Virus record (IMG/VR): IMGVR_UViG_3300042465_006773
Source of the DNA: a virus
Length of the DNA: 64,000 bases
Strand: one strand, 5' to 3'
A program made the translations under genes and the position numbers. Shown piece after piece: positions 1,205 to 13,321 of the stretch. Position 1 is the first letter of the stretch. Each line of letters opens with the position of its first letter. The notes under the pieces were generated by a model that was given only the letters and a program-made list of their open reading frames with translations, did no database searches and was not told where the DNA came from.

Positions 1205-1459
1205 ATGACTTTCAAAAATTGGATTGTAGACTTATTTAAAGACGAGAGAGGTTCTACTTCTATAAAACCCGTAATCGCATTTTTAGGTTCAACTTTTCTA
1301 TGTGGTACTATGTTAGCTAATTCATTTTCTCATGGTGATATTAAACCATCTGAGGATTTGGTAAACGCAGTAATGATTATAACCGCGATAGGAATGGGTG
1401 CCGATACTTTGGATAAGTTTTCACATAAAAGGAAATTTGAAGACAATGTATCTGAATAA
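1205..1459 (+). CDS. Small two-TM membrane protein (holin-like topology)
   Basis: Two hydrophobic segments (PVIAFLGSTFLCGTML; VNAVMIITAIGMGA) and a charged C-terminus. Confidence 0.7.
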   Translation: MTFKNWIVDLFKDERGSTSIKPVIAFLGSTFLCGTMLANSFSHGDIKPSEDLVNAVMIITAIGMGADTLDKFSHKRKFEDNVSE

Positions 1460-1461
1460 AA

Positions 1462-1956
1462 ATGAAAAAACCATATATACTTACCGTTTTATTTTTTCTT
1501 TTATTGGGGTTAAATAATCTTAACGCCCAAAGTCTTGTTGTTGATACGGTAATCAACAACATAAAAATAGGTCCATTTACTGAAAATAAAAATTTGGCAT
1601 TTGGAGTTAAAAATATTGCTGAAGAAATTATAAACGAACAGGATAAATTTTATTTGGTTGGAGACAAATCAACGTCAGAATATAAAATAAAAATTGAACT
1701 AATATTTTTTGATATTATTAAGGTTAACTCCGGTATTAGTGTTTTCCATCAAGATAAAACAACGACGGTAATTAGAATGAAAGGGATTCTATACAAAGGA
1801 GATAAAAAAATAAAACAAGAATTTTCGGAAGGGAAATCGACAGAAATATCAACTTCAACAATCATTATTGATGAAGGTGGTAAATTTAATCAACAATCTG
1901 CCAGTTCAGCAATAAAAAAAACAACTCAAACACTATTAAATAATTTATTACTATGA
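1462..1956 (+). CDS. Secreted protein, short CsgG-like paralogue
   Basis: Signal peptide ending LNA|Q. Aligns by eye with 4775..5539: FGVKNIAEE/LGVANITLE, SEGKS/GLGEA, KFNQQSASSAIKK/KFNQSTIGISTKK. Confidence 0.65.
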   Translation: MKKPYILTVLFFLLLGLNNLNAQSLVVDTVINNIKIGPFTENKNLAFGVKNIAEEIINEQDKFYLVGDKSTSEYKIKIELIFFDIIKVNSGISVFHQDKTTTVIRMKGILYKGDKKIKQEFSEGKSTEISTSTIIIDEGGKFNQQSASSAIKKTTQTLLNNLLL

Positions 1957-3860
1957 AAAAACTAATTTTAACATTTGTGTTAATGATGATAACCTATGTA
2001 GGTTATTCACAGAGCGTAGGTAATTTTCAACAATTATCTACAATAAGAAGAAACGATACGTTAGATGTAATATTTCAATACATCCCCGACCCAACAAAAG
2101 ATGTAAGGTCGTTTCAAATCGATTTCCAATTTAAGAAGGATTTATTTACACACGTTTCAACAACTGTGGATAATAGTGTTAATACCATGACACCGGCAAT
2201 ATCATATAACGAATATGATAACTTTAAGTATGGTTCATATAGTCCAGCAACGGGTTTATATGGGTATGTTAATGACACAAATTGGACCGTCGCTAGAAAC
2301 TTTTTAGTATTATCAAGTGGTTCTCAAATTTCAGGAGCAATATACATCATTCACAATAAATTTTTAATTAACAATGTTCAATCCAATTTCGTGGAAGATA
2401 GTGTACACGTGAACTGGGTTAGATTGTTTAAAAAAGACGGTACAAGTATTGGTGATAACGTAGCGAATTTGACTTACAAGAGTATGAAGTTAGATTTGGG
2501 TGGTAACTTGGTTATAAGTGGTAATGTTGAACTTCCACCGACTATGAAATTAGATGGTAGAAGACCAATGGTTATATGTACTAAATTAAACACTGGTGAG
2601 TTTGTGTCTTCTTCTTTATGTGATACTTCAGGTAACTATAGTTTAAATAATGTTGATAGAAACACTAGATATAAATTACTTTTAAGATTCCCATCTGATA
2701 GTATGGAAACTTTCAGAGATTATGCGGTAACGATATCAGATGCCGTAAAAACATATGATGAATTTACAAGAACAGACGTTAATCAAACGTATTCAAGATT
2801 TTATTTGAAAAATGGTTTATCTTATTTGATTGCTGATTTAAATGGAAATGGTAATTTAGATGGTGGTGACCCGTATTTGATATACGCAAATGTTAGTGGT
2901 TTAAGAAAAATAGATACTACGAACATGATTAGAGTGTTTAAAGCATCTGATTATGATAACTTAGTTTTAGGTCAAAACCAATGGTCTATTTGGCCTAATT
3001 TTTTAAACACAACAAACTTTATCACGGATAGTGTTGGTAACGAAAATTTGGTTGTGAATATTAAATACTTTATACAAGGTGATGTTGATAGAACATTCTC
3101 TTCAAGAGTGTGGGATAGTAATGGTAATTTAGTTGCCAGAGCAATTTATAAAGGTAAATTAGATATTAACATACCAAACACATATTCTGTTGGTAATCCA
3201 TCGTTATATGTTCCATTTAACATAAACACAAATGGGGATAATAACTATGGACTACAATTTGAAATGAAGTATGACAGAACAAAAGTTAAATTTGAAGAAA
3301 TCGTGTCCAATTTTAATGGTGGCCCATGGTTACAATATGTGACACACGATGAACTATCAGGTACTGTTAGGTTTGGCGGAATGAATAATCAACAAAGAGA
3401 CGGTTTAATTGGTCAATCGACACCTTTTAAACTTAAATTTTCACCAATTGGTGGTGAGGATATCGTAACAAATATTCAAATTAGAGAATTGATGGATGCC
3501 TCGGACGAAAATGGTGACCACTTAAATATTGAGTTACAAAACCAAATCGCAGTTTTAAGTTATAGGTCAATTCCACAGACCCATCAAGTTGTTGAAGAAA
3601 TAACAGCATCGATAAGACCAAACCCAACAACAGGTTGGTTTGAATTAGAAGTTAAATTTCCAAATCAAAATATGTTTATGGACGCATCTATTTATGATAT
3701 CAGAGGTAAGTTGATTCAAAACGTAGGACAAGTTATAACAAATCCAATGGAAACGGTCGCATATAAACAAATTGATATGACATACGCTTCTAATGGAAAT
3801 TATTTTCTAATTCTGAATAATTATAATAAACAATTAACTAAACAATTTATAAAAGTATAA
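1953..3860 (+). CDS. T9SS cargo: cohesin-like / beta-sandwich / dockerin-like / cohesin-like / T9SS C-terminal sorting domain
   Basis: Signal peptide GYS|Q. Cohesin-like motifs VRSFQIDFQF and YGLQFEMKYD...GTVRFGG...FKLKF; Ca-loop ADLNGNGNLDGGD; C-terminus IRPNPTTG...SIYDIRGKLI...GNYFLIL...TKQFIKV typical of a type A T9SS CTD. Confidence 0.8.
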   Translation: MKKLILTFVLMMITYVGYSQSVGNFQQLSTIRRNDTLDVIFQYIPDPTKDVRSFQIDFQFKKDLFTHVSTTVDNSVNTMTPAISYNEYDNFKYGSYSPATGLYGYVNDTNWTVARNFLVLSSGSQISGAIYIIHNKFLINNVQSNFVEDSVHVNWVRLFKKDGTSIGDNVANLTYKSMKLDLGGNLVISGNVELPPTMKLDGRRPMVICTKLNTGEFVSSSLCDTSGNYSLNNVDRNTRYKLLLRFPSDSMETFRDYAVTISDAVKTYDEFTRTDVNQTYSRFYLKNGLSYLIADLNGNGNLDGGDPYLIYANVSGLRKIDTTNMIRVFKASDYDNLVLGQNQWSIWPNFLNTTNFITDSVGNENLVVNIKYFIQGDVDRTFSSRVWDSNGNLVARAIYKGKLDINIPNTYSVGNPSLYVPFNINTNGDNNYGLQFEMKYDRTKVKFEEIVSNFNGGPWLQYVTHDELSGTVRFGGMNNQQRDGLIGQSTPFKLKFSPIGGEDIVTNIQIRELMDASDENGDHLNIELQNQIAVLSYRSIPQTHQVVEEITASIRPNPTTGWFELEVKFPNQNMFMDASIYDIRGKLIQNVGQVITNPMETVAYKQIDMTYASNGNYFLILNNYNKQLTKQFIKV

Positions 3861-3864
3861 AATC

Positions 3865-4212
3865 ATGAGTGAAGAAACAGAAAACGACGGCTCTTGGGGT
3901 GGTTTGAAAAAAACCATCGTAGGTACATTAGCAACCATTGTCACAGGTGGTGGTGTGTGGGTATCCACAACTCTATTTGGTGGTGGAGGGGACGATAAAG
4001 AAGAAACTAAAACAGAACAGGTTGCACCCGCACCAGTTATTAATCTTAATTTAGAAAATAATAACACTCAACAACAAAATAACTCGGGTGGTGGAACAAC
4101 TATCATAAAAGAAAGAGTTATTGAAAAGCAACCAGAAAATAACAATAAACCCGCACCTGCTCCGAAGAAAAAAGAAGGTGATGAATTTAAAGAAACCCCA
4201 CCAGCATGGTAA
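3865..4212 (+). CDS. Single-pass membrane protein with low-complexity N/Q/P tail
   Basis: Hydrophobic Gly-rich segment TIVGTLATIVTGGGVWV followed by a disordered-looking tail. Confidence 0.7.
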   Translation: MSEETENDGSWGGLKKTIVGTLATIVTGGGVWVSTTLFGGGGDDKEETKTEQVAPAPVINLNLENNNTQQQNNSGGGTTIIKERVIEKQPENNNKPAPAPKKKEGDEFKETPPAW

Positions 4213-4778
4213 ATGATAATTCTCAAAACACTGGATTTAGAGAACTTCTAAATTCAATGATGAAAAGAAGGTGGTTTATAACCGCCATAGTTCTTGGTGG
4301 GTTCATGTTAATTATGGGTGGAATATTTTTGGCCATATTTGAACAAAGTGCCATAAGTGGAGAATGGAAAGAACTTCTTCTTTTACTTCTTGGTGCTTTC
4401 ATTGGTTCCTACGGTAAAATCATTGACTATTGGTTCAGTGATACTGATAAGGATAAAATGTTAGTTCAAAAAATGGATGAAGAGGATGGTACTTCGTTAT
4501 CAAATACATCGGATATACCAGATTCACCAAAACCATCAACACCATCTAAACCCATTCTTGATTTAGAAAGTACTGAAACGAAATCAAATAATGAACAAAA
4601 AGTTGGTGTAGAAATCGATGAGGATGGTGATGGTATTATGGATGGTTTAGATTTCGATAATGACGGTATCATTGATGAATATTTCACACACAGACAATGT
4701 GAACACGTTTGGGGTGATTCAGACAATGACGGTGATTTAGAGTGTTTAAAATGTGGTAAAATAAAAGACGAAGAATGA
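4206..4778 (+). CDS. Two-TM membrane protein with Ca-binding DxDxDG repeats and a Cys/His cluster
   Basis: Two TM helices, then DEDGDG, DFDNDG, DSDNDG and CEH...CLKC. Confidence 0.75.
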   Translation: MVNDNSQNTGFRELLNSMMKRRWFITAIVLGGFMLIMGGIFLAIFEQSAISGEWKELLLLLLGAFIGSYGKIIDYWFSDTDKDKMLVQKMDEEDGTSLSNTSDIPDSPKPSTPSKPILDLESTETKSNNEQKVGVEIDEDGDGIMDGLDFDNDGIIDEYFTHRQCEHVWGDSDNDGDLECLKCGKIKDEE

Positions 4779-5539
4779 ATAACATAATCAAAATGAAAAA
4801 ATATTTACTACCAATTTTAGTATTTCTATTTTGGGTTATCATAATGACGATATTAATGTTTGATGTTGCATCTGCACAAGTTATTGGTAAAACACAAACA
4901 GAGCAATACAAAGCGTCATTTGAAACAAGTGTAAATATTGATTCATTAATGGATTATGAGGGACCACAAATTCCTATTCAAATTTTGAAAATAGGTATAA
5001 ATGATGAAGTTTATGAACAATACCCAGAATTAAAAGAAAAAAAAGTTGGTTTGGGTGTTGCAAATATCACATTGGAGTACTTGGAAAATCTAAATAGATT
5101 TACTTTTACCGAAGATAAAACCGAAATAAAAAACAGAATGGTTAAACAATTCCAAGCGTCTCAAGCTGGAATAAGTGCAGATACTTTAGATGGTAGGGGT
5201 AAAATTCGTTTAGCACACTATTTTGTTAGTATTGAAGTTTATGATTTTTCAATAAGTGAAGATGAGACTGTTAACTTGTCTGATGGCGTAAAAAATACTG
5301 TGGTTACAAGATTAGGTTTACAGGTTAGATTTACCGATGCAGAAACAGGCCAAATAATCGCTGCAAGTGGTTTGGGTGAAGCTAAAACGGTAAGAGAATT
5401 AAGTTTAATAAACGACGATAATTTAAGTGATGTTAAATTTAACCAATCAACTATTGGTATAAGCACTAAAAAAGCATTAGACATTGCATGTTGTAGAATA
5501 CTATTGAGAATGATAAAAAAGGGTGTTTTCCCTAATTAA
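4775..5539 (+). CDS. CsgG/HfaB-family protein (likely start MKKYLL, about 4793)
   Basis: Signal peptide ASA|Q. LGVANITLEYLENLNRF, VYDF, LGLQVRFTDAETGQIIAASGLGEA and a C-terminal helix fit the CsgG/HfaB family. Confidence 0.75.
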   Translation: MNNIIKMKKYLLPILVFLFWVIIMTILMFDVASAQVIGKTQTEQYKASFETSVNIDSLMDYEGPQIPIQILKIGINDEVYEQYPELKEKKVGLGVANITLEYLENLNRFTFTEDKTEIKNRMVKQFQASQAGISADTLDGRGKIRLAHYFVSIEVYDFSISEDETVNLSDGVKNTVVTRLGLQVRFTDAETGQIIAASGLGEAKTVRELSLINDDNLSDVKFNQSTIGISTKKALDIACCRILLRMIKKGVFPN

Positions 5540-5577
5540 CAAAGACAGATTCTAATATCTTCTTTTAAAGAAAATGA

Positions 5578-7011
5578 GTGATGATATTAAAAAATATTAT
5601 AAAAGTATCTTTAATAATATTACTTATAATATTTTCTAAAATATCAAATGCACAAGTAACCACTTATACATTTATAGACCCTTGTACAAAAGAAGTTAAC
5701 ATTTTTAGTGTACCATTACAAGGAGGTAAAACAACAATAATTTTTTTAAATAAAATAGGTTATTTTGATAGTGACGATTTGTTAAATGGAACATTTTCAA
5801 ATTGGATAAATCAAGTTTATGGTGAATATAGACAAATAAGTCCGTGTTCACAACAACAATCTCAAGTAACTCAAAATCAAATAACCAGTCAAATAATCGG
5901 AGGAGTTGTACAATCGGTAGTCGGTTCAATAATGTCATCCAATCAATCTTCAAATGGGTCAACAGAAAATAACAATGAGGACTCTGAAGAAAACAATAAT
6001 ACTCAAAGAAATGGAAACAATAATACTACGGGAAATAATGAAAACAACTCTTCAAATCAAGGAGGAGGACAATCTCAACCAAATCAAACAAATGGTGGGT
6101 CATCTGGAGGAACAAATAACGGTCAAGGAAATGGAACTACAGGCAATGGTGGAGCGAATGGAGGTACAACTGGTTCAACACAAGGAAGAAATCCGTCGAC
6201 TAAACCGACTGTAAACAATTCAAACAATTCTGAATCAAATGGTGAAGAAGTTGCCGCAACTACCACAATAAATTTAGATAGTAGAACCGAGAAAGGTGAT
6301 AATTCATCAAATGATGGTGGTGGTTCAGGAAGAAGAGGTGGGTCAAGAAGTGGTGGTTCAAACAGTAATCCAATTATAGTTTCCTCAGATTTAACATCGG
6401 CACAAAATTTAGATGGTAGGTTCACAGGGATAATAAACATCAGTACCAGTAGGTCGTCGATGACTGGTTTATCAAATTATGGTGTTACAAGTATGATTTG
6501 GTTAAATTTAAACCAATTCGCCATTTCCGCCAAATATAGTAAAATACATTTTGATAAAAGTCAAAAGTTAAAATTCGTCCATAATCTAAATTTAACAGGT
6601 GTTTATACATATGGTAATTACCTGGTATTTTTAGGGTATAGTGGTATCTTAAATGCAGGTAAATTCGGAGTAACCGGTTTAAATTTGAGTGCTGCCGCCT
6701 CAATAATCACTAAAGAAAAAACAGGTTATTACTCACCTTCTGCAACTTTTTTCTACACAAAACCATTTCAGGTTAACAAAAGATTTATGATGTCACCTGA
6801 AATATATGTAATGTCAACACCGTTAGTTTATTCAACAAAAGATAGAATAACAATTACAGACAGGTACGTGAGTGGTTTTATAGGTACGGGAATGGATTAT
6901 CAAATATCAAAAAGATTTAAAATAAACTTGAATTATAAGGCAAATATGAGTACTAAACCGAATTTTCCTATTTTGTCTTTTTTTCTAATTGGTAGTAAAG
7001 TTAATTTATGA
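5578..7011 (+). CDS. Outer-membrane beta-barrel protein with N/G/S/Q-rich low-complexity stalk
   Basis: Signal peptide SNA|Q, small N-domain with two Cys, about 140 aa of N/G/S/T/Q-rich sequence, then about 210 aa of alternating hydrophobic strands ending FFLIGSKVNL. Confidence 0.7.
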   Translation: MMILKNIIKVSLIILLIIFSKISNAQVTTYTFIDPCTKEVNIFSVPLQGGKTTIIFLNKIGYFDSDDLLNGTFSNWINQVYGEYRQISPCSQQQSQVTQNQITSQIIGGVVQSVVGSIMSSNQSSNGSTENNNEDSEENNNTQRNGNNNTTGNNENNSSNQGGGQSQPNQTNGGSSGGTNNGQGNGTTGNGGANGGTTGSTQGRNPSTKPTVNNSNNSESNGEEVAATTTINLDSRTEKGDNSSNDGGGSGRRGGSRSGGSNSNPIIVSSDLTSAQNLDGRFTGIINISTSRSSMTGLSNYGVTSMIWLNLNQFAISAKYSKIHFDKSQKLKFVHNLNLTGVYTYGNYLVFLGYSGILNAGKFGVTGLNLSAAASIITKEKTGYYSPSATFFYTKPFQVNKRFMMSPEIYVMSTPLVYSTKDRITITDRYVSGFIGTGMDYQISKRFKINLNYKANMSTKPNFPILSFFLIGSKVNL

Positions 7012-8756
7012 GATTCTTTGGGTTCTTGTATGTATTATTTTTATTACCAATATTTGTTTTTTCTCAAAACATAAGCGCACCATCATCCACCAATTTTTCT
7101 CAAAATTTATCTAATCAAAATGCGAGTGGATTTTCAATATCAAATTTTAACACAAGCGCAACTTTACTTATTACAATTGGTTTAGTAAATCCACCGGCCG
7201 GTACTACTCTTTCGTTAATAACAACAACAGGATTATCTTTAAGTACAGGTTATTCTTCTTGGTCAAATTTTACAAGAATTAGTTTTACGGGTATTCAATC
7301 AAATATTAACAACGCTTTAAGTTCGTTAAAATTAAACACAGGTTCTTTACCGGGTAATGTTTACATCGCGGTAACCGCAACCGTAAATCCAACGGGATAT
7401 TATTATTTACCAACAAACGGACACTTTTATAGACCGATGTCTTGGCCAGCGGGTAATTCAGGAACAAGTAATTCGATATATGAAAATATAAAAACATTAT
7501 CAACACAACAAACATTTAAAGGACAAACCGGGTATTTGTTAACGATTACATCTCAAGATGAACAAAATTTTGTTCAGTCAAACGTACCGGGTAATAATAT
7601 TTTATTTTCATTAACAGACGTTGGTCAAGAAGGTGTTTGGAGAATAGATGCCGGACCTGAAAATGGTACAATAATAAAAACATCAAATTCGGGCGGAAAC
7701 GTTGCGGGTAGATATAACAATTGGTGTGGTGGTGAACCAAACAATTGGGGTAGTGGTGAAAACTATGCAGTTACTAAATGGGGTGGTGGTAATTGTTGGA
7801 ACGATTTTGGTCCACCTGCATCATCTTTTCCTGGTTCAATAAGTGGTTATGTTGTTGAATTTGGAACGTGGTCAGACCCCGCAAATCAAAATTTCACAGA
7901 TTTTTTTACAGGATTTGTTACACATCAAATTACTTGTACACCATCACAAGAACCACCAAAACCCATTGCAGTAAACGGTAGTAGAACGGGTAGTGGTACT
8001 GTGACAATATCAGCAACAGTTGGTCCCGGTCAAACTGTTGATTGGTATAATAATTTAACAGGGGGTAACCCAATATTAGTTGGTAATACCACTTTTACGA
8101 CACCAGTTATTTCTCAAACAACAAAATATTATGCTCAGTCAAGAAATACGTCAACGGGTTGTGTTAGTTCAACAAGAACAGAAGTCACGGCAACAGTTTC
8201 AATTTCAGAAACAATAAGTGGGACAATAACTATTCCTAATAATATAACAAATAGACCACAATTAAAATTTTATCTTGTTGAGAATAATTTAGAAACATTA
8301 ATACAGACCATAAACGTTAATTCAAATGGTTCATATACTTTGAACCCAACAAAACACAATTCAACATACAAAATAGTTCCAACGTTTTTTGATTCATTAA
8401 CAAATAACGATTTTAATTTATTATTTAACGAATCTAAAAATGAAAATACACCAAATCAATTACCCATTGGTTTGGTTTTAAATAATGGAAAAAAAATGAT
8501 TTCGGGTGATATTAATAATGATGGAAAAATAACAATTGTCGATGCCTATCTATTGGCATCAAGAATATCGGGAATGATTTATTTTAACGAAACGGTATGG
8601 TATTACGAAAATGATTATAATTTAATAGGTATTGGTAATTTTAATTCAATACCTAATTACCGACAATTTATTGTTAATTTTGGGACATCCAATATTATTT
8701 TAAATTTAAAATATATTGTTAAGGGAGACTGCGATTTGTCAATATCCTCTTATTGA
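7008..8756 (+). CDS. Secreted C-type-lectin-like / Ig-like / dockerin-like protein
   Basis: Signal peptide VFS|Q. CTL motifs GYLLTITSQDEQNFV, EGVW, YNNWCGGEPNN, ENYA, WND; Ig module TVDWY...TTFTTPVISQTTKYYAQ; dockerin loop GDINNDGKITIVDAYLL. Confidence 0.8.
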   Translation: MRFFGFLYVLFLLPIFVFSQNISAPSSTNFSQNLSNQNASGFSISNFNTSATLLITIGLVNPPAGTTLSLITTTGLSLSTGYSSWSNFTRISFTGIQSNINNALSSLKLNTGSLPGNVYIAVTATVNPTGYYYLPTNGHFYRPMSWPAGNSGTSNSIYENIKTLSTQQTFKGQTGYLLTITSQDEQNFVQSNVPGNNILFSLTDVGQEGVWRIDAGPENGTIIKTSNSGGNVAGRYNNWCGGEPNNWGSGENYAVTKWGGGNCWNDFGPPASSFPGSISGYVVEFGTWSDPANQNFTDFFTGFVTHQITCTPSQEPPKPIAVNGSRTGSGTVTISATVGPGQTVDWYNNLTGGNPILVGNTTFTTPVISQTTKYYAQSRNTSTGCVSSTRTEVTATVSISETISGTITIPNNITNRPQLKFYLVENNLETLIQTINVNSNGSYTLNPTKHNSTYKIVPTFFDSLTNNDFNLLFNESKNENTPNQLPIGLVLNNGKKMISGDINNDGKITIVDAYLLASRISGMIYFNETVWYYENDYNLIGIGNFNSIPNYRQFIVNFGTSNIILNLKYIVKGDCDLSISSY

Positions 8757-9152: not shown

Positions 9153-9611
9153 TTATTGGGTATGGTCTATTTTAACCCTAACACAAGATTGTTCTTGTCT
9201 TTCTCTCATTAAAAAATTATTGATATACCCCATAATGTTAGATGCCCCAACTGGGTTCGCTGAATGTGTATAAACCTGTGGAAAGTTAATCGGGGTATTC
9301 CTTTTCTCCATAGATGACATCTTTTCTCTATTTTGAGAAAAATTATCGTAGTAGTGATTTATTAACCATTTAGCACAATCATATCCTGTTTTTTCTTTAA
9401 TATTCTCATAATTTAATTGTCCGTTTGGGTAAACATTTGAATAGAATTCCTCCATCGCACTATCACCTAAATCATGGTCAAGAGATATTATGTCAATATT
9501 CTCTAATCCAATTTTTGTTACTGTTTTTACAAAATCATCGTAATTTCTTACAACAATCCAATCTGTATTAATTGGTGTACGGATATCGTCTAAATAAATT
9601 TTAACTTTCAT
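9153..9611 (-). CDS. Cyclic-phosphate-processing receiver-like (cREC) protein
   Basis: YLDDIR, WIVVRNY, ISLDHDLG, TGYDCAKWL and HSANPVG motifs; adjacent to an RNA ligase. Confidence 0.8.
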   Translation of the reverse strand: MKVKIYLDDIRTPINTDWIVVRNYDDFVKTVTKIGLENIDIISLDHDLGDSAMEEFYSNVYPNGQLNYENIKEKTGYDCAKWLINHYYDNFSQNREKMSSMEKRNTPINFPQVYTHSANPVGASNIMGYINNFLMRERQEQSCVRVKIDHTQ

Positions 9612-10668
9612 CTTTTTTAAATGGTTTAGAATATGTTGGTCGTATTAATTTCCAAATTTTGCTTGAGTAGTCTTTACCATCTAACATACTAAATAATAAA
9701 TATGGGTACTTATATTTTTTAGTATATTCAGCAAATACCGCTCTATTTTCACCGTTTGAACTTCTACTAATTACTTTGAAAATACACTTGTATTCTTTTT
9801 CTATTTTTTCGTATTGATTTAACAATTCGTTTTTAGTGTCTCTAACCCAATTATAAAATTCATCGGGTACTTTATCAAGAATTTCATCAAAAGAAATATT
9901 ATCTCTTAAAGATTCCCAAATATCGATATTTGAAACATTCGTTAAAATTCTATGTAAACGAACATACTCTTCAAACTTTATTTTCATTCTAAAATTTGAA
10001 GGATAAAATCGAATAACAAACCCCTCTCTATTTGGGGTATTTAGTTTTTTATATGTATCAAAAGTTTCTTTCCCAAAAGTTATCATGGTACTTTCCACAA
10101 TATCTTCTTCTTTAATTTCTGATGAATTAAAAATTGCTCGGGCAGTATACCAATTCAGTTCACCTTCAGGTGACGTTACCGATAAAAAAGTAACCTTATC
10201 GTGTTCGTAACTGACTACAATTCTATTCTCCGAATAGATTATTTCTAATAAATAAGTAAATCCCTTAACAAATTTTGATAAATCATATTTTGATTTAAGA
10301 ATATTAAAACCACGAATAGATTGTTCTGAGGTAAACGAACCTCTTGTCGCCATTATCCACTCATCATCATAATTAAATAAAATACCAAGAGACCCGTCCA
10401 TTTTTTCTTGAACATAAGCATATTCACTATTCCAAGGAATTAAATCTTTATGAATAACCTCTTCGTAATTAAAAAATTTACCAAACGGTTTGGCAACAAT
10501 ATCACCTTTTGAATTAGTAATGAGACCACGACACTGCATGGTGATATCATCCCAAAGAGATTCATACTGTACTTTGGGGGTATAGTTCCAAATGCACAAA
10601 TCTTTGGTAGGATGGATTTGTTTCATTAATAAACCATCTTCGTGGTATTTTTTAAGTGTTTCTATCAT
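9601..10668 (-). CDS. T4 Rnl1/RnlA-like RNA ligase
   Basis: CRGLI, KFFN, motif I EKMDGSLG, ATRGSF, LEII, EGFV, KIK. Confidence 0.9.
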   Translation of the reverse strand: MIETLKKYHEDGLLMKQIHPTKDLCIWNYTPKVQYESLWDDITMQCRGLITNSKGDIVAKPFGKFFNYEEVIHKDLIPWNSEYAYVQEKMDGSLGILFNYDDEWIMATRGSFTSEQSIRGFNILKSKYDLSKFVKGFTYLLEIIYSENRIVVSYEHDKVTFLSVTSPEGELNWYTARAIFNSSEIKEEDIVESTMITFGKETFDTYKKLNTPNREGFVIRFYPSNFRMKIKFEEYVRLHRILTNVSNIDIWESLRDNISFDEILDKVPDEFYNWVRDTKNELLNQYEKIEKEYKCIFKVISRSSNGENRAVFAEYTKKYKYPYLLFSMLDGKDYSSKIWKLIRPTYSKPFKKDES

Positions 10669-11048
10669 ATAGAAAATTCAAAACGTTTCTTCATTATTTC
10701 TAATCTATCTTCTGGTACTCCGTGTAAATTCAAACCTCCATGTCGATTTTCAACAATAATGGAATGTACCCTGTAACCAAATTGATTAGCCATTTCATAG
10801 TAAGAATCCATTTCCCATTTTTGAGTGAAAGTATTAGATACAATGATAAGTGGTTTTTCCAACAACATCCAATCCGAAACTTGATTCCTACACCATTCGT
10901 GTGCTATTTTTAATTTTGACCCGTCAAAGTGATATTCACCGTCTTTCATAAAGTACATATCCGCTTCGATATGTTCACCATCTAAAAGTTTCGCTAACGT
11001 TGATTTACCTGACCCAGGTAATCCTCTTAAAAGTAACAGTTCTTTCAT
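10665..11048 (-). CDS. P-loop polynucleotide kinase-like (AAA_33) protein (probable ATG at 11048)
   Basis: LRGLPGSGKST, EADMYF, AHEWC, VSNTF, HGVP. Confidence 0.85.
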   Translation of the reverse strand: MKELLLLRGLPGSGKSTLAKLLDGEHIEADMYFMKDGEYHFDGSKLKIAHEWCRNQVSDWMLLEKPLIIVSNTFTQKWEMDSYYEMANQFGYRVHSIIVENRHGGLNLHGVPEDRLEIMKKRFEFSI

Positions 11049-11086
11049 TTTATTTGTTTTTACAAATATACGAAAAAAAAACCAAT

Positions 11087-11180
11087 AAAAAACCCCCAAC
11101 GGAGAGTTGGGGGTCATGGTCATTTTGTGGTTTCAACACCACTAACTAAAACGAGAGGAATCGGCAAAGATTTCCTATTT
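11087..11180 (-). ncRNA. Candidate structured small RNA ending in an intrinsic terminator
   Basis: TATTTATA at 11185-11192 (-), hairpins at 11156-11176 and 11121-11153, then terminator ACCCCCAAC-TCTCC-GTTGGGGGT-TTTT at 11087-11114. Confidence 0.45.
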
Positions 11181-11220
11181 GATATATAAATATATATACT
11201 TTTACAAAAAGTCAAGGTAT

Positions 11221-13239
11221 TTAGCTTCTTTTTTTAATTATTTTTATTTCACCGTCTTTAAACTTCAGTAAAATGTTTTGATTTTCAGACACCTCACCTC
11301 TTAGTATTTTTTCACTTAAAAAGTCCTCACACAAGTTTTGTATGATTCTCTTTACTGGTCTAGCCCCGAAATCTTCTTGGGTATTCAATTCAGAAATCCT
11401 ATCAACAATTGATGAATCAAATGAAACTTTATAATTTTTTAGTGTGAGTCTTTTTTTAAGTTTCTCTAATTCAAGTTCGATTATTTTGTGGATACTTTCT
11501 TTTACGAGAGGATTAAAACTAATGATATCATCCACCCGATTTAAAAATTCAGGATTAAAGTATTGCTTCAAAGATTTTTGAACAATTAATTTTTTTACTT
11601 CCTCATTTTGAGTATTACTAAAAGATGTTTCAAATCCGAGACCCTTACCAAAATCAGAAACTTTTTTTGCTCCAATGTTAGAGGTCATGATAATTATTGC
11701 ATTTGAAAAACTAACTTTCCTTCCAAAAGAATCTGTAAGGTGTCCTTCATCTAAAATTTGTAATAGTATATTGAACACGTCTTTATGGGCCTTTTCTATC
11801 TCATCAAATAAAACCACAGAAAAGGGGTTGTGTTTAATTTTTTCAGTCAACTGACCACCTTCATCATATCCAACATACCCAGGAGGTGCACCAATCAATT
11901 TTGCAACATTGTGTTTTTCCATGTATTCACTCATATCAACCCGAATAACTTTATTTGGGTCATTAAACAATATCTCTGCAATTGATTTTGCTAAGTAAGT
12001 TTTACCAACACCTGTTGACCCTAAAAAGATAAAGGAACCAATTGGTTTATTGGTGTCTTTAATTCCAACTCTGTTTCTTCGTATTGATTTTGATATAATT
12101 GAGATTGCCTCATCTTGACCAATAACTTTAGATTTCAATTTTTCTTCTAAATTTAAAAGATTGTCAGTTTCAACAACATCAACTTTAGATATAGGAACAC
12201 CGACAATTTGGGATACCATTTCATATACATCATCTATTGAAATTGGTATTTTACTATCTTTTTGTGTTTCCAACCATTTTTCTTTTTCTTCTTGTAGTTT
12301 TGATAAAACCTTTTTTTCTTCATCTCTTAACTTAGCCGCTTGTTCATATTGTTGATTTTTTACTACCTGAATCTTCCTCATTTTTATATCATCGGACTCT
12401 TTTTTAAGTTTTTCAATTACTTCAGGTATTTTAGAGTTTATTTTTTTATCGGAACCAAGTTCATCTAAAACATCAATTGCTTTGTCAGGAAATTGTCTAT
12501 CTGTTATGTACTTTGAAGACAAGGTAACGATTGTAGATAAAACATCATCACTATAATGAACTTTATGAAAATCTTGATATGAATTTCTAAGATTTTTTAA
12601 TATTTGAACTGTTTCATCGGCCGATGGTTCCTTTAAAACTATTTTTTGAAATCTTCGTACAAGTGCACCGTCTTTTTCAATGTTTTTTTTGTATTCATCA
12701 AAAGTGGTTGCACCAATACATTGAATCTCACCTCTAGCCAATGCGGGTTTTAATATATTGGCAACATCCATTGAACCACTTGCGTTACCGGCACCGACCA
12801 TCGTATGCATTTCATCAATAAACAATATTACATTTGGTTCATTTTGTAACTCATTTAAGATTGCTTTAATCCTTTCTTCAAACTGACCCCTGTACTTTGT
12901 TCCTGCAACCAAAGACGTTAAATCCAACGATAATAATTTTTTATCCAATAGATTACTTGGACAATCTCCATTGACTATTTGTAATGCTAATTTTTCAACC
13001 AACGCCGATTTACCAACACCAGCATCACCAACAATTATTGCATTATTTTTTTTCTTTCGGGCTAAAATTTGGGCAATTCTTTTGACTTCTTTTTCTCTAC
13101 CAACAACGGGGTCAATTTTACCTTCTTCCGCTAATTTATTTAAGTCCCTTGAAAAATTATCAAGAACCGGTGTAGTTGAACTTTTTTTTGTTTTTTTGGA
13201 ACTCGATGGGTTCCCATCTTCGAAAAAATCTACTGACAT
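11221..13239 (-). CDS. clpC: ClpC-like AAA+ chaperone lacking the N-terminal Clp domain
   Basis: Two AAA modules (GDAGVGKS/LFIDEMH; GSTGVGKT/LFDEIEKAH), KYRGQFEER, GYVG pore loop, UVR-like middle domain QQYEQAAKLRD and a GLGF ClpP-docking loop. Confidence 0.92.
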   Translation of the reverse strand: MSVDFFEDGNPSSSKKTKKSSTTPVLDNFSRDLNKLAEEGKIDPVVGREKEVKRIAQILARKKKNNAIIVGDAGVGKSALVEKLALQIVNGDCPSNLLDKKLLSLDLTSLVAGTKYRGQFEERIKAILNELQNEPNVILFIDEMHTMVGAGNASGSMDVANILKPALARGEIQCIGATTFDEYKKNIEKDGALVRRFQKIVLKEPSADETVQILKNLRNSYQDFHKVHYSDDVLSTIVTLSSKYITDRQFPDKAIDVLDELGSDKKINSKIPEVIEKLKKESDDIKMRKIQVVKNQQYEQAAKLRDEEKKVLSKLQEEKEKWLETQKDSKIPISIDDVYEMVSQIVGVPISKVDVVETDNLLNLEEKLKSKVIGQDEAISIISKSIRRNRVGIKDTNKPIGSFIFLGSTGVGKTYLAKSIAEILFNDPNKVIRVDMSEYMEKHNVAKLIGAPPGYVGYDEGGQLTEKIKHNPFSVVLFDEIEKAHKDVFNILLQILDEGHLTDSFGRKVSFSNAIIIMTSNIGAKKVSDFGKGLGFETSFSNTQNEEVKKLIVQKSLKQYFNPEFLNRVDDIISFNPLVKESIHKIIELELEKLKKRLTLKNYKVSFDSSIVDRISELNTQEDFGARPVKRIIQNLCEDFLSEKILRGEVSENQNILLKFKDGEIKIIKKRS

Positions 13240-13321
13240 ATTTTGTTTTTTATACAAATATAAGGGATTTCATGATAAAAAACAAATATATGACAAAATA
13301 ACCTAAAAAAGAAAAAAAGTA

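Follow-up and report, generated by a model that had tools for sequence, protein, structure and literature searches.

Scaffolds that bring proteins together through cohesin-dockerin pairs and cargo proteins of a type IX secretion system (T9SS) are both known from cells. In the DNA described here features of both are found in one conserved viral protein. The window analysed is a stretch of 64,000 nucleotides of the IMG/VR virus record IMGVR_UViG_3300042465_006773, and the protein in question, the scaffold P0001, is encoded by an intact open reading frame of 635 residues (1953-3860, + strand), whose ATG overlaps the upstream stop (ATGA), within a block of genes for exported and membrane proteins. 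The literature search turned up no report of virus-encoded T9SS cargo or of virus-encoded cohesin or dockerin proteins, and none describing this block.

Several described systems resemble parts of the locus. In the cellulosomal scaffoldins, such as Clostridium thermocellum CipA (Coh9-X-DocII, 4fl4 and 3kcp; type II X-dockerin, 2b59 and 5g5d), one exported chain carries several cohesins together with a sandwich bearing a calcium-binding helical element, and the matching module sits on separate proteins, beneath functional heads of various kinds; the same holds for the viral proteins. The scaffoldin-like architecture claimed in the original prediction is supported by the alignment of the CipA Coh9-X-Doc chains (4fl4_I, 3kcp_A) over residues 16-384 of the scaffold. 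However, the viral system comes from a phage that infects a Gram-negative host, and a T9SS C-terminal domain (CTD) stands in place of S-layer homology (SLH) or sortase anchoring. Besides, the "dockerin" is here a single F-hand inside a CnaB/prealbumin sandwich, the heads are lectins instead of enzymes, and module and cohesin are presumed to bind each other.

With the T9SS type A cargo proteins of Bacteroidota, P0001 shares a signal peptide and a C-terminal beta-sandwich of about 85 residues that passes both curated models of such domains. It differs from them in being the product of a viral gene, and in relatives with genomes of 111-130 kb the domain exists as a lone lipoprotein, a form that to our knowledge is not known for ordinary T9SS cargo tags. 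On the phage side, Flavobacterium phage vB_FspM_immuto (NC_055915), the nearest cultured relative by capsid protein (around 40% identity), has a syntenic block, gp013-gp019. In this block gp015, annotated as "cohesin domain-containing protein", consists of one cohesin and a CTD, and gp016, gp017, gp018 and gp019 match the products of the genes that start at 3865, 4775, 5578 and 1462, respectively. The module shared by scaffold and head proteins is matched weakly by gp013 (C-type lectin protein; E 2.6e-6), and gp014, with a module match of E 0.003, ends in the same GD-type motif. Nevertheless, gp015 has 243 residues against 635, a single cohesin and no module of its own; the immuto block is without a gene of the 4206 type, and gp019, the homologue of the 1462 product, comes after the barrel gene. 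The immuto block is known from database annotation only, and the literature search turned up no functional study of it.

A further parallel is offered by T4-like pelagimyophages, in which a partial curli (CsgG/CsgF) cluster is exported and of unexplained function; "sibling capture" and aggregation have been proposed for it (PMC7029224). Both cases concern exported envelope genes in aquatic T4-like phages, and the aggregation idea would fit a display of lectins. The pelagimyophage cluster, however, has recognisable CsgG and CsgF and contains no cohesin, lectin or T9SS tag, whereas the CsgG likeness of the product of 4775-5539 in the window is a language-model lead only. This product reaches a protein-atlas (language-model) score of 0.94 against CsgG clusters, with 170-182 shared features; the likeness to CsgG/HfaB (PF03783) is unconfirmed, there being no Pfam match at E <= 0.01 and no CsgG among the PDB profile matches.

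The type A CTD of the scaffold comprises residues 548-635 (3594-3857, +). Residues 556-634 reach 31.2 bits with Por_Secre_tail (PF18962, cut-off 27 bits) and 25.1 bits with TIGR04183 (cut-off 23 bits), and the model of residues 548-635 superposes on the CTD of PorU (6za2_A) with a Z of 9.6 and a root-mean-square deviation (rmsd) of 2.4 over 86 residues, at 21% identity. In the full model the region has a local predicted distance difference test (pLDDT) of 81-90 and appears as a seven-stranded beta-sandwich like those of solved CTDs. The signature that the original prediction had described in the last 85 residues or so was thus recovered by both curated models, TIGR04183 among them, as well as by the superposition on PorU. 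The domain stands at the extreme C-terminus (ending at 634-635 of 635) of a protein with signal peptide, it is matched in all 22 aligned orthologues, and in the orthologues from complete genomes it scores 38-43 bits. The 121-kb record has no other domain of this type, and the complete relatives likewise have one each. To judge from this CTD, the protein is most likely exported via the T9SS of the host.

The signal peptide, as read from the sequence, covers residues 1-20 (1953-2012, +), with a KK pair, a hydrophobic core and the end ...YSQ. Its Gln20 is invariant, even among homologues at 25% identity. Cleavage of signal peptides before Gln is typical of Bacteroidota. It is followed by the N-terminal cohesin fold (residues 22-183; 2016-2501, +). 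The ten best VIA-align matches of the model of residues 17-185 are all solved cohesins (2vo8, 2jh2, 3ul4_A, 4uyq_A and 1g1k among them), with Z values of 11.4-12.9 and rmsd values of 2.7-3.8 over nearly whole chains; against 2vo8 the Z is 12.9 and the rmsd 2.7, with 133 of 135 residues aligned. In the model, the N-terminal domain has the nine-stranded jelly-roll fold of cohesins. By sequence, a distant homologue (P0131) reaches 34.6 bits with Pfam Cohesin (PF00963, cut-off 24.1 bits) over the same domain (residues 28-180), and hhalign relates the N-terminal cohesin domain of the scaffold to the C-terminal one (E 2.3e-4).

The C-terminal cohesin-like domain (residues ~400-540; 3150-3572, +) is modelled with modest confidence in the full-length structure, and it aligns with the cohesin of immuto gp015. 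Pfam Cohesin matches this domain in 14 of the 22 orthologues at E <= 1; the score is 26.5 bits in P0016, which is 63% identical to the scaffold (residues 402-499), and 27.2 and 27.1 bits over the equivalent domain of P0127 and P0139. The PDB sequence-profile search with the whole scaffold family gave nothing useful.

Between both cohesins, residues 184-385 (2502-3107, +) form a prealbumin/CnaB/CarboxypepD_reg-like beta-sandwich with a helical insert. When this segment was refolded with AlphaFold2 (AF2) from an alignment of 47 sequences, the model reached a pLDDT of 92.3 and a predicted template modelling score (pTM) of 0.88. In it the segment folds into a single sandwich, to which both of its ends contribute strands, with about 80 helical residues inserted between them. 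The closest folds by VIA-align are the SdrD B-domain (Z 9.4) and other CnaB/transthyretin folds (Z 7-9), and Pfam CarboxypepD_reg is found in the module of 8 of the 22 orthologues. The insert holds an EF/F-hand calcium loop (2835-2870, +), followed by a helix; the loop, D295-x-N-x-N-G-x-x-D-x-x-D306, is canonical, and its ends D295 and D306 are invariant in the 47 sequences. The module carries only this one canonical loop, the first repeat being degenerate and its loop absent from the head proteins. The top Foldseek matches of the module are the X-dockerin chains 5g5d_B, 4u3s_B and 2b59_B, all of them weak (E 3e-3 to 8e-3, rmsd 13-15 Å), whereas VIA-align favours CnaB/SdrD B domains over X-dockerins.

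The same module is found in a second exported protein of the block. This head protein (7008-8756, +) consists of C-type lectin and Ig_7 domains followed by the shared sandwich/F-hand module (8187-8753, +), and it is without CTD. Ig_7 is matched with 58.7 bits, and Lectin_C (18.1 bits) and Dockerin_1 (16.6 bits) remain below cut-off; in the homologue P0181, Lectin_C reaches 28.9 bits. Homology to scaffold residues 184-384 extends over the last 190 residues or so of the head protein, and both the acidic residues and the GD...SS motif at the end are invariant. The module stays constant while the heads vary: C-type lectin forms have 477-584 residues, and unrelated forms have 367 or about 765 residues. 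Such constancy beneath changing heads is what one sees in a docking tag to which interchangeable functional parts are attached.

The occurrence of the head gene was followed in 160 related loci, 80 from the clade in which the scaffold bears the CTD (fused clade) and 80 from the clade in which it does not (split clade). Of the 80 CTD-bearing loci about 71 contain it, and of the 80 split-clade loci none does. The module occurs twice in complete genomes of the jumbo clade and once in those of the split clade. The most obvious partner of the cohesins would be the C-terminal module of the head protein, and not the scaffold's own loop. A complex prediction for the C-terminal cohesin (residues 398-548) with the head module gave a median of 0.29 against a mark of 0.32, and decides neither way.

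The scaffold's own module leads to another explanation, the polymer of the original prediction, in which it would plug into a cohesin of the next molecule, and the molecules, joined head to tail, would form a filament or mesh at the envelope or within it. The complete genomes of the split clade would be in accordance with such a polymer, as they carry the module on the scaffold only, and no other phage-encoded partner of this kind is found in them; moreover, both cohesins and the calcium-loop module are kept down to about 25% identity. Nevertheless, binding could also be in cis or to a molecule of the host, and no repeat-like or filament signal was found. Polymerisation is regarded as unlikely.

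The explanation that we favour, at a little under an even chance, is a lectin display at the surface of the infected cell. The Sec system would export the scaffold into the host envelope by means of its signal peptide, and the type A CTD would hand it over to the host T9SS, which would bring it to the cell surface, where it would stay attached or be set free. Outside, the two cohesins would act as sockets for the calcium-loop sandwich module, both the scaffold's own and that of the head proteins, so that module-tagged lectin heads would be held outside the cell and the outcome would be a phage-made lectin display. This display would be part of a larger conserved envelope block, in which two small proteins are exported, another two lie in the inner membrane and one probably forms a barrel in the outer membrane. 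Candidate purposes are masking the glycan receptor of the phage on cells and debris, excluding other phages, or making the cells sticky. Support for the lectin display comes from the CTD in every aligned orthologue, the signal peptide with its invariant Gln, the cohesins, the shared module, the co-occurrence of the head gene, the parallel with immuto and the operon on one strand.

Several results weigh against this display. First, of the two cohesin-like domains in the original prediction, the N-terminal one stands by its fold and the C-terminal one stands in orthologues, but P0001 itself has no Pfam Cohesin match at E <= 1, the scores above cut-off being those of P0016, P0127, P0139 and P0131. 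Second, the dockerin-like calcium loop of that prediction is retained as a canonical EF/F-hand but not as a stand-alone dockerin: on the evidence of the model, the module is a CnaB/prealbumin sandwich with one canonical F-hand in its insert, and not a two-repeat dockerin. Dockerin_1 (PF00404, cut-off 22.9 bits) has no match in P0001 and stays below cut-off, at 13-20 bits, in relatives (13.5-14.3 bits) and at the F-hand of the neighbouring head protein (16.6-19.8 bits). Third, the crossing of the outer membrane by the head protein is not accounted for, as it has no CTD. Fourth, the presence of a T9SS in the host is deduced from the nearest cultured phage, which infects Flavobacterium, and from the Bacteroidota-type signal peptides. 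Finally, the CTD homologue of the sister clade stands alone as a lipoprotein, which suggests that the domain may have a role of its own.

This split form was analysed in the loci of the second clade. The split-clade scaffolds, at about 25% identity and with complete genomes of 111-130 kb, end after the second cohesin with a conserved ...GYNNF, and a gene for a lipoprotein of about 120 residues follows directly in 77 of the 80 loci. A lipobox is present in 73 of these 77 lipoproteins and its Cys is invariant. The body of the lipoprotein is related to the scaffold CTD by hhalign (probability 91.5%, E 8.6e-7, 75 columns; controls below 2%). Pfam Por_Secre_tail is found in 20 of 38 lipoproteins at E <= 1, with 24.4 bits, below cut-off, in the listed member, and TIGR04183 gives 19.5 bits against its cut-off of 23. 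The fused CTD is therefore the more canonical T9SS signal of the two, as far as these profiles tell. As the domain stands free in the lipoprotein, it cannot be a cleavable cargo tag in the sister clade. Scaffold and CTD-like domain are fused in one lineage and encoded by two adjacent genes in another, and for this reason they are suggested to work as one unit. The CTD-only lipoproteins (loci L003-L082, e.g. L005:9698-10072) are often acidic at +3 and +5 after the Cys. Acidic residues after the Cys recall the surface-export signal of Bacteroidota lipoproteins, which is to be taken as a lead only.

The lipoprotein has a bearing on a different role for the domain. Instead of an export tag, the CTD could be a working anchor or adaptor of a phage-built periplasmic or outer-membrane complex tied to lysis, either a spanin-like bridge or a sensor of lysis or superinfection; the lipid anchor would serve in the sister clade, and the fused CTD of this phage may dock the phage barrel or the CsgG-like protein. 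We consider this possible, at clearly less than an even chance. In the split-clade loci, next after the lipoprotein gene comes that of a bitopic inner-membrane protein whose C-terminal motif is conserved, an arrangement that speaks for such a complex. The same can be said of the lysis genes near the block: the gene of a glycoside hydrolase family 19 (GH19) endolysin, which matches the solved lytic enzyme PDB 9eoi at E 2.9e-35, is found within 8 kb in 113 of the 160 loci, on the same strand in 105, and a small holin-like membrane-protein gene lies within 8 kb in 91 of the 160, on the same strand in all of them. Both genes are often found directly upstream of the block or inside it. This anchor role is, however, at odds with the fused CTD being the more canonical one (31-43 bits, against about 24 at most for the lipoprotein), a position outside the cell would suit a lectin head better, neither a coiled-coil nor a spanin signature was found, and the GH19 endolysin was not found in the 121 kb available from this phage. 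Examples of endolysin or holin-like genes within or beside the block are L010:10141-10990 and L084:11080-11673, and the window has its own holin-like gene at 1205-1459 (+).

A lipid anchor with a CTD alone has no cargo to export, and this would also suit a decoy of the T9SS. The scaffold, or the CTD-only lipoprotein, would plug PorV or the translocon and stop host secretion or gliding, removing T9SS-delivered surface receptors that competing phages use. In Flavobacterium, phage resistance is often traced to genes of gliding and of the T9SS. Even so, a decoy leaves the two conserved cohesins, the head proteins and the rest of the block unexplained, and we regard it as very unlikely.

Returning to the lectin display, it can be joined with the lipoprotein form in a broader proposal, which we hold as doubtful: a self-contained kit, carried by hundreds of T4-like phages of Bacteroidota, that would rebuild the surface of the infected cell, with the scaffold delivered through the T9SS or held by a CTD-derived lipoprotein anchor, and with swappable lectin heads plugged in by calcium-loop modules. 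Within this same doubtful proposal, the display would hide the glycan that serves the phage as receptor, both on cells and on the debris of lysis, or it would let infected cells capture neighbouring hosts. If the display exists, it would be the first viral use of the T9SS and the first viral display of cohesin-dockerin type, and a new route by which a phage remodels the cell surface, through a host secretion system and with exchangeable sugar-binding heads. It would bear on superinfection exclusion, on the loss of progeny to debris and on the attachment to particles in lakes. With its fused and its split form, the CTD offers a natural experiment on what such domains can do besides targeting, and the cultured pair of Flavobacterium sp. 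LMO8 and phage immuto makes this testable.

The window belongs to a T4-like jumbo phage. It encodes a large terminase (TerL), a portal, a T4 gp23-type capsid protein, a tail sheath protein, a DNA polymerase and a helicase, which agrees with the phage origin given in the original prediction. The source record is a 121-kb IMG/VR fragment with a CheckV completeness of 39%. Relatives with the same scaffold gene reach 288-321 kb, one of them with terminal repeats, and the complete ones have about 320 kb. There are at least 414 full-length scaffold homologues with 55-95% identity, nearly all of them bearing the CTD; IMG/VR contains 106 loci with the fused form of the scaffold and 307 with the split form. 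The exported-protein block is strictly syntenic in more than 400 viral contigs and is met very often in phage contigs of both freshwater and marine origin. Near-identical DNA is found in lake-water metagenomes from more than 12 studies, and no RNA run is listed among the sequencing runs that contain it, the two labelled RNA-Seq being probably DNA. A pattern-limited scan of 185,579 species genomes with the scaffold alignment found zero relatives, which is not proof of absence.

The genes from 1205 to 8756 are all on one strand, with stop/start overlaps at four junctions, and the 160 related loci keep the order 1462, scaffold, 3865, (4206), 4775 and 5578. Signal peptides are present on four products of the block and membrane anchors on two. 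A structural role in the virion was rejected because these signal peptides and anchors direct the products out of the cytoplasm. PHROGs contains no family for P0001 or its six neighbours, NCBIfam none for the neighbours, and the only family matches of the latter are Ig_7 and the weak lectin and dockerin matches on 7008-8756. A sigma-70 promoter scan did not rise above shuffled sequences, the sigma-70 model being unsuited to Bacteroidota promoters.

The gene adjoining that of the scaffold (1462-1956, +) encodes an exported protein of 164 residues and is found in 78/80 and 80/80 related loci. Its product is distantly related to that of 4775-5539 (hhalign E 4.7e-4 over the whole small protein), and the two appear to be distant paralogues. 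The latter (4775-5539, +) is the most conserved protein of the block, with 65-92% identity across loci and 57% to immuto gp017. Downstream of the scaffold gene, 3865-4212 (+), present in 80/80 fused-clade loci, encodes a bitopic membrane protein whose tail is disordered and whose C-terminal motif is conserved, and 4206-4778 (+) encodes a protein with two transmembrane segments, Asp-rich repeats and a Cys-rich C-terminus. The DxDGD-type repeats of this protein are candidate calcium sites, and its Cys-rich C-terminus shows 55-86% identity across clades.

The last of these neighbours (5578-7011, +) codes for an exported protein that contains an N/G/S-rich spacer and probably ends, at its C-terminus, in an outer-membrane beta-barrel. 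The PDB profile search with the barrel part of the family gave low-complexity matches only. A small Cys-containing N-domain is followed by about 140 residues of N/G/S/Q-rich low complexity and then by the probable barrel; the length of the spacer varies widely in the family, whose proteins have 364-555 residues.

Just upstream of the block there are four phage tRNA genes (427-1062, - strand), for Arg(TCT), Leu(TAA), Glu(TTC) and Lys(TTT). On the other side, the region 9153-13257 (-) contains an RNA-repair-like set, composed of a cREC_REC cyclic-phosphate receiver domain, a T4 Rnl1-type RNA ligase and a small P-loop kinase resembling polynucleotide kinase (PNK), and this set is followed by a double-AAA+ protein of the ClpB/Hsp104 type.

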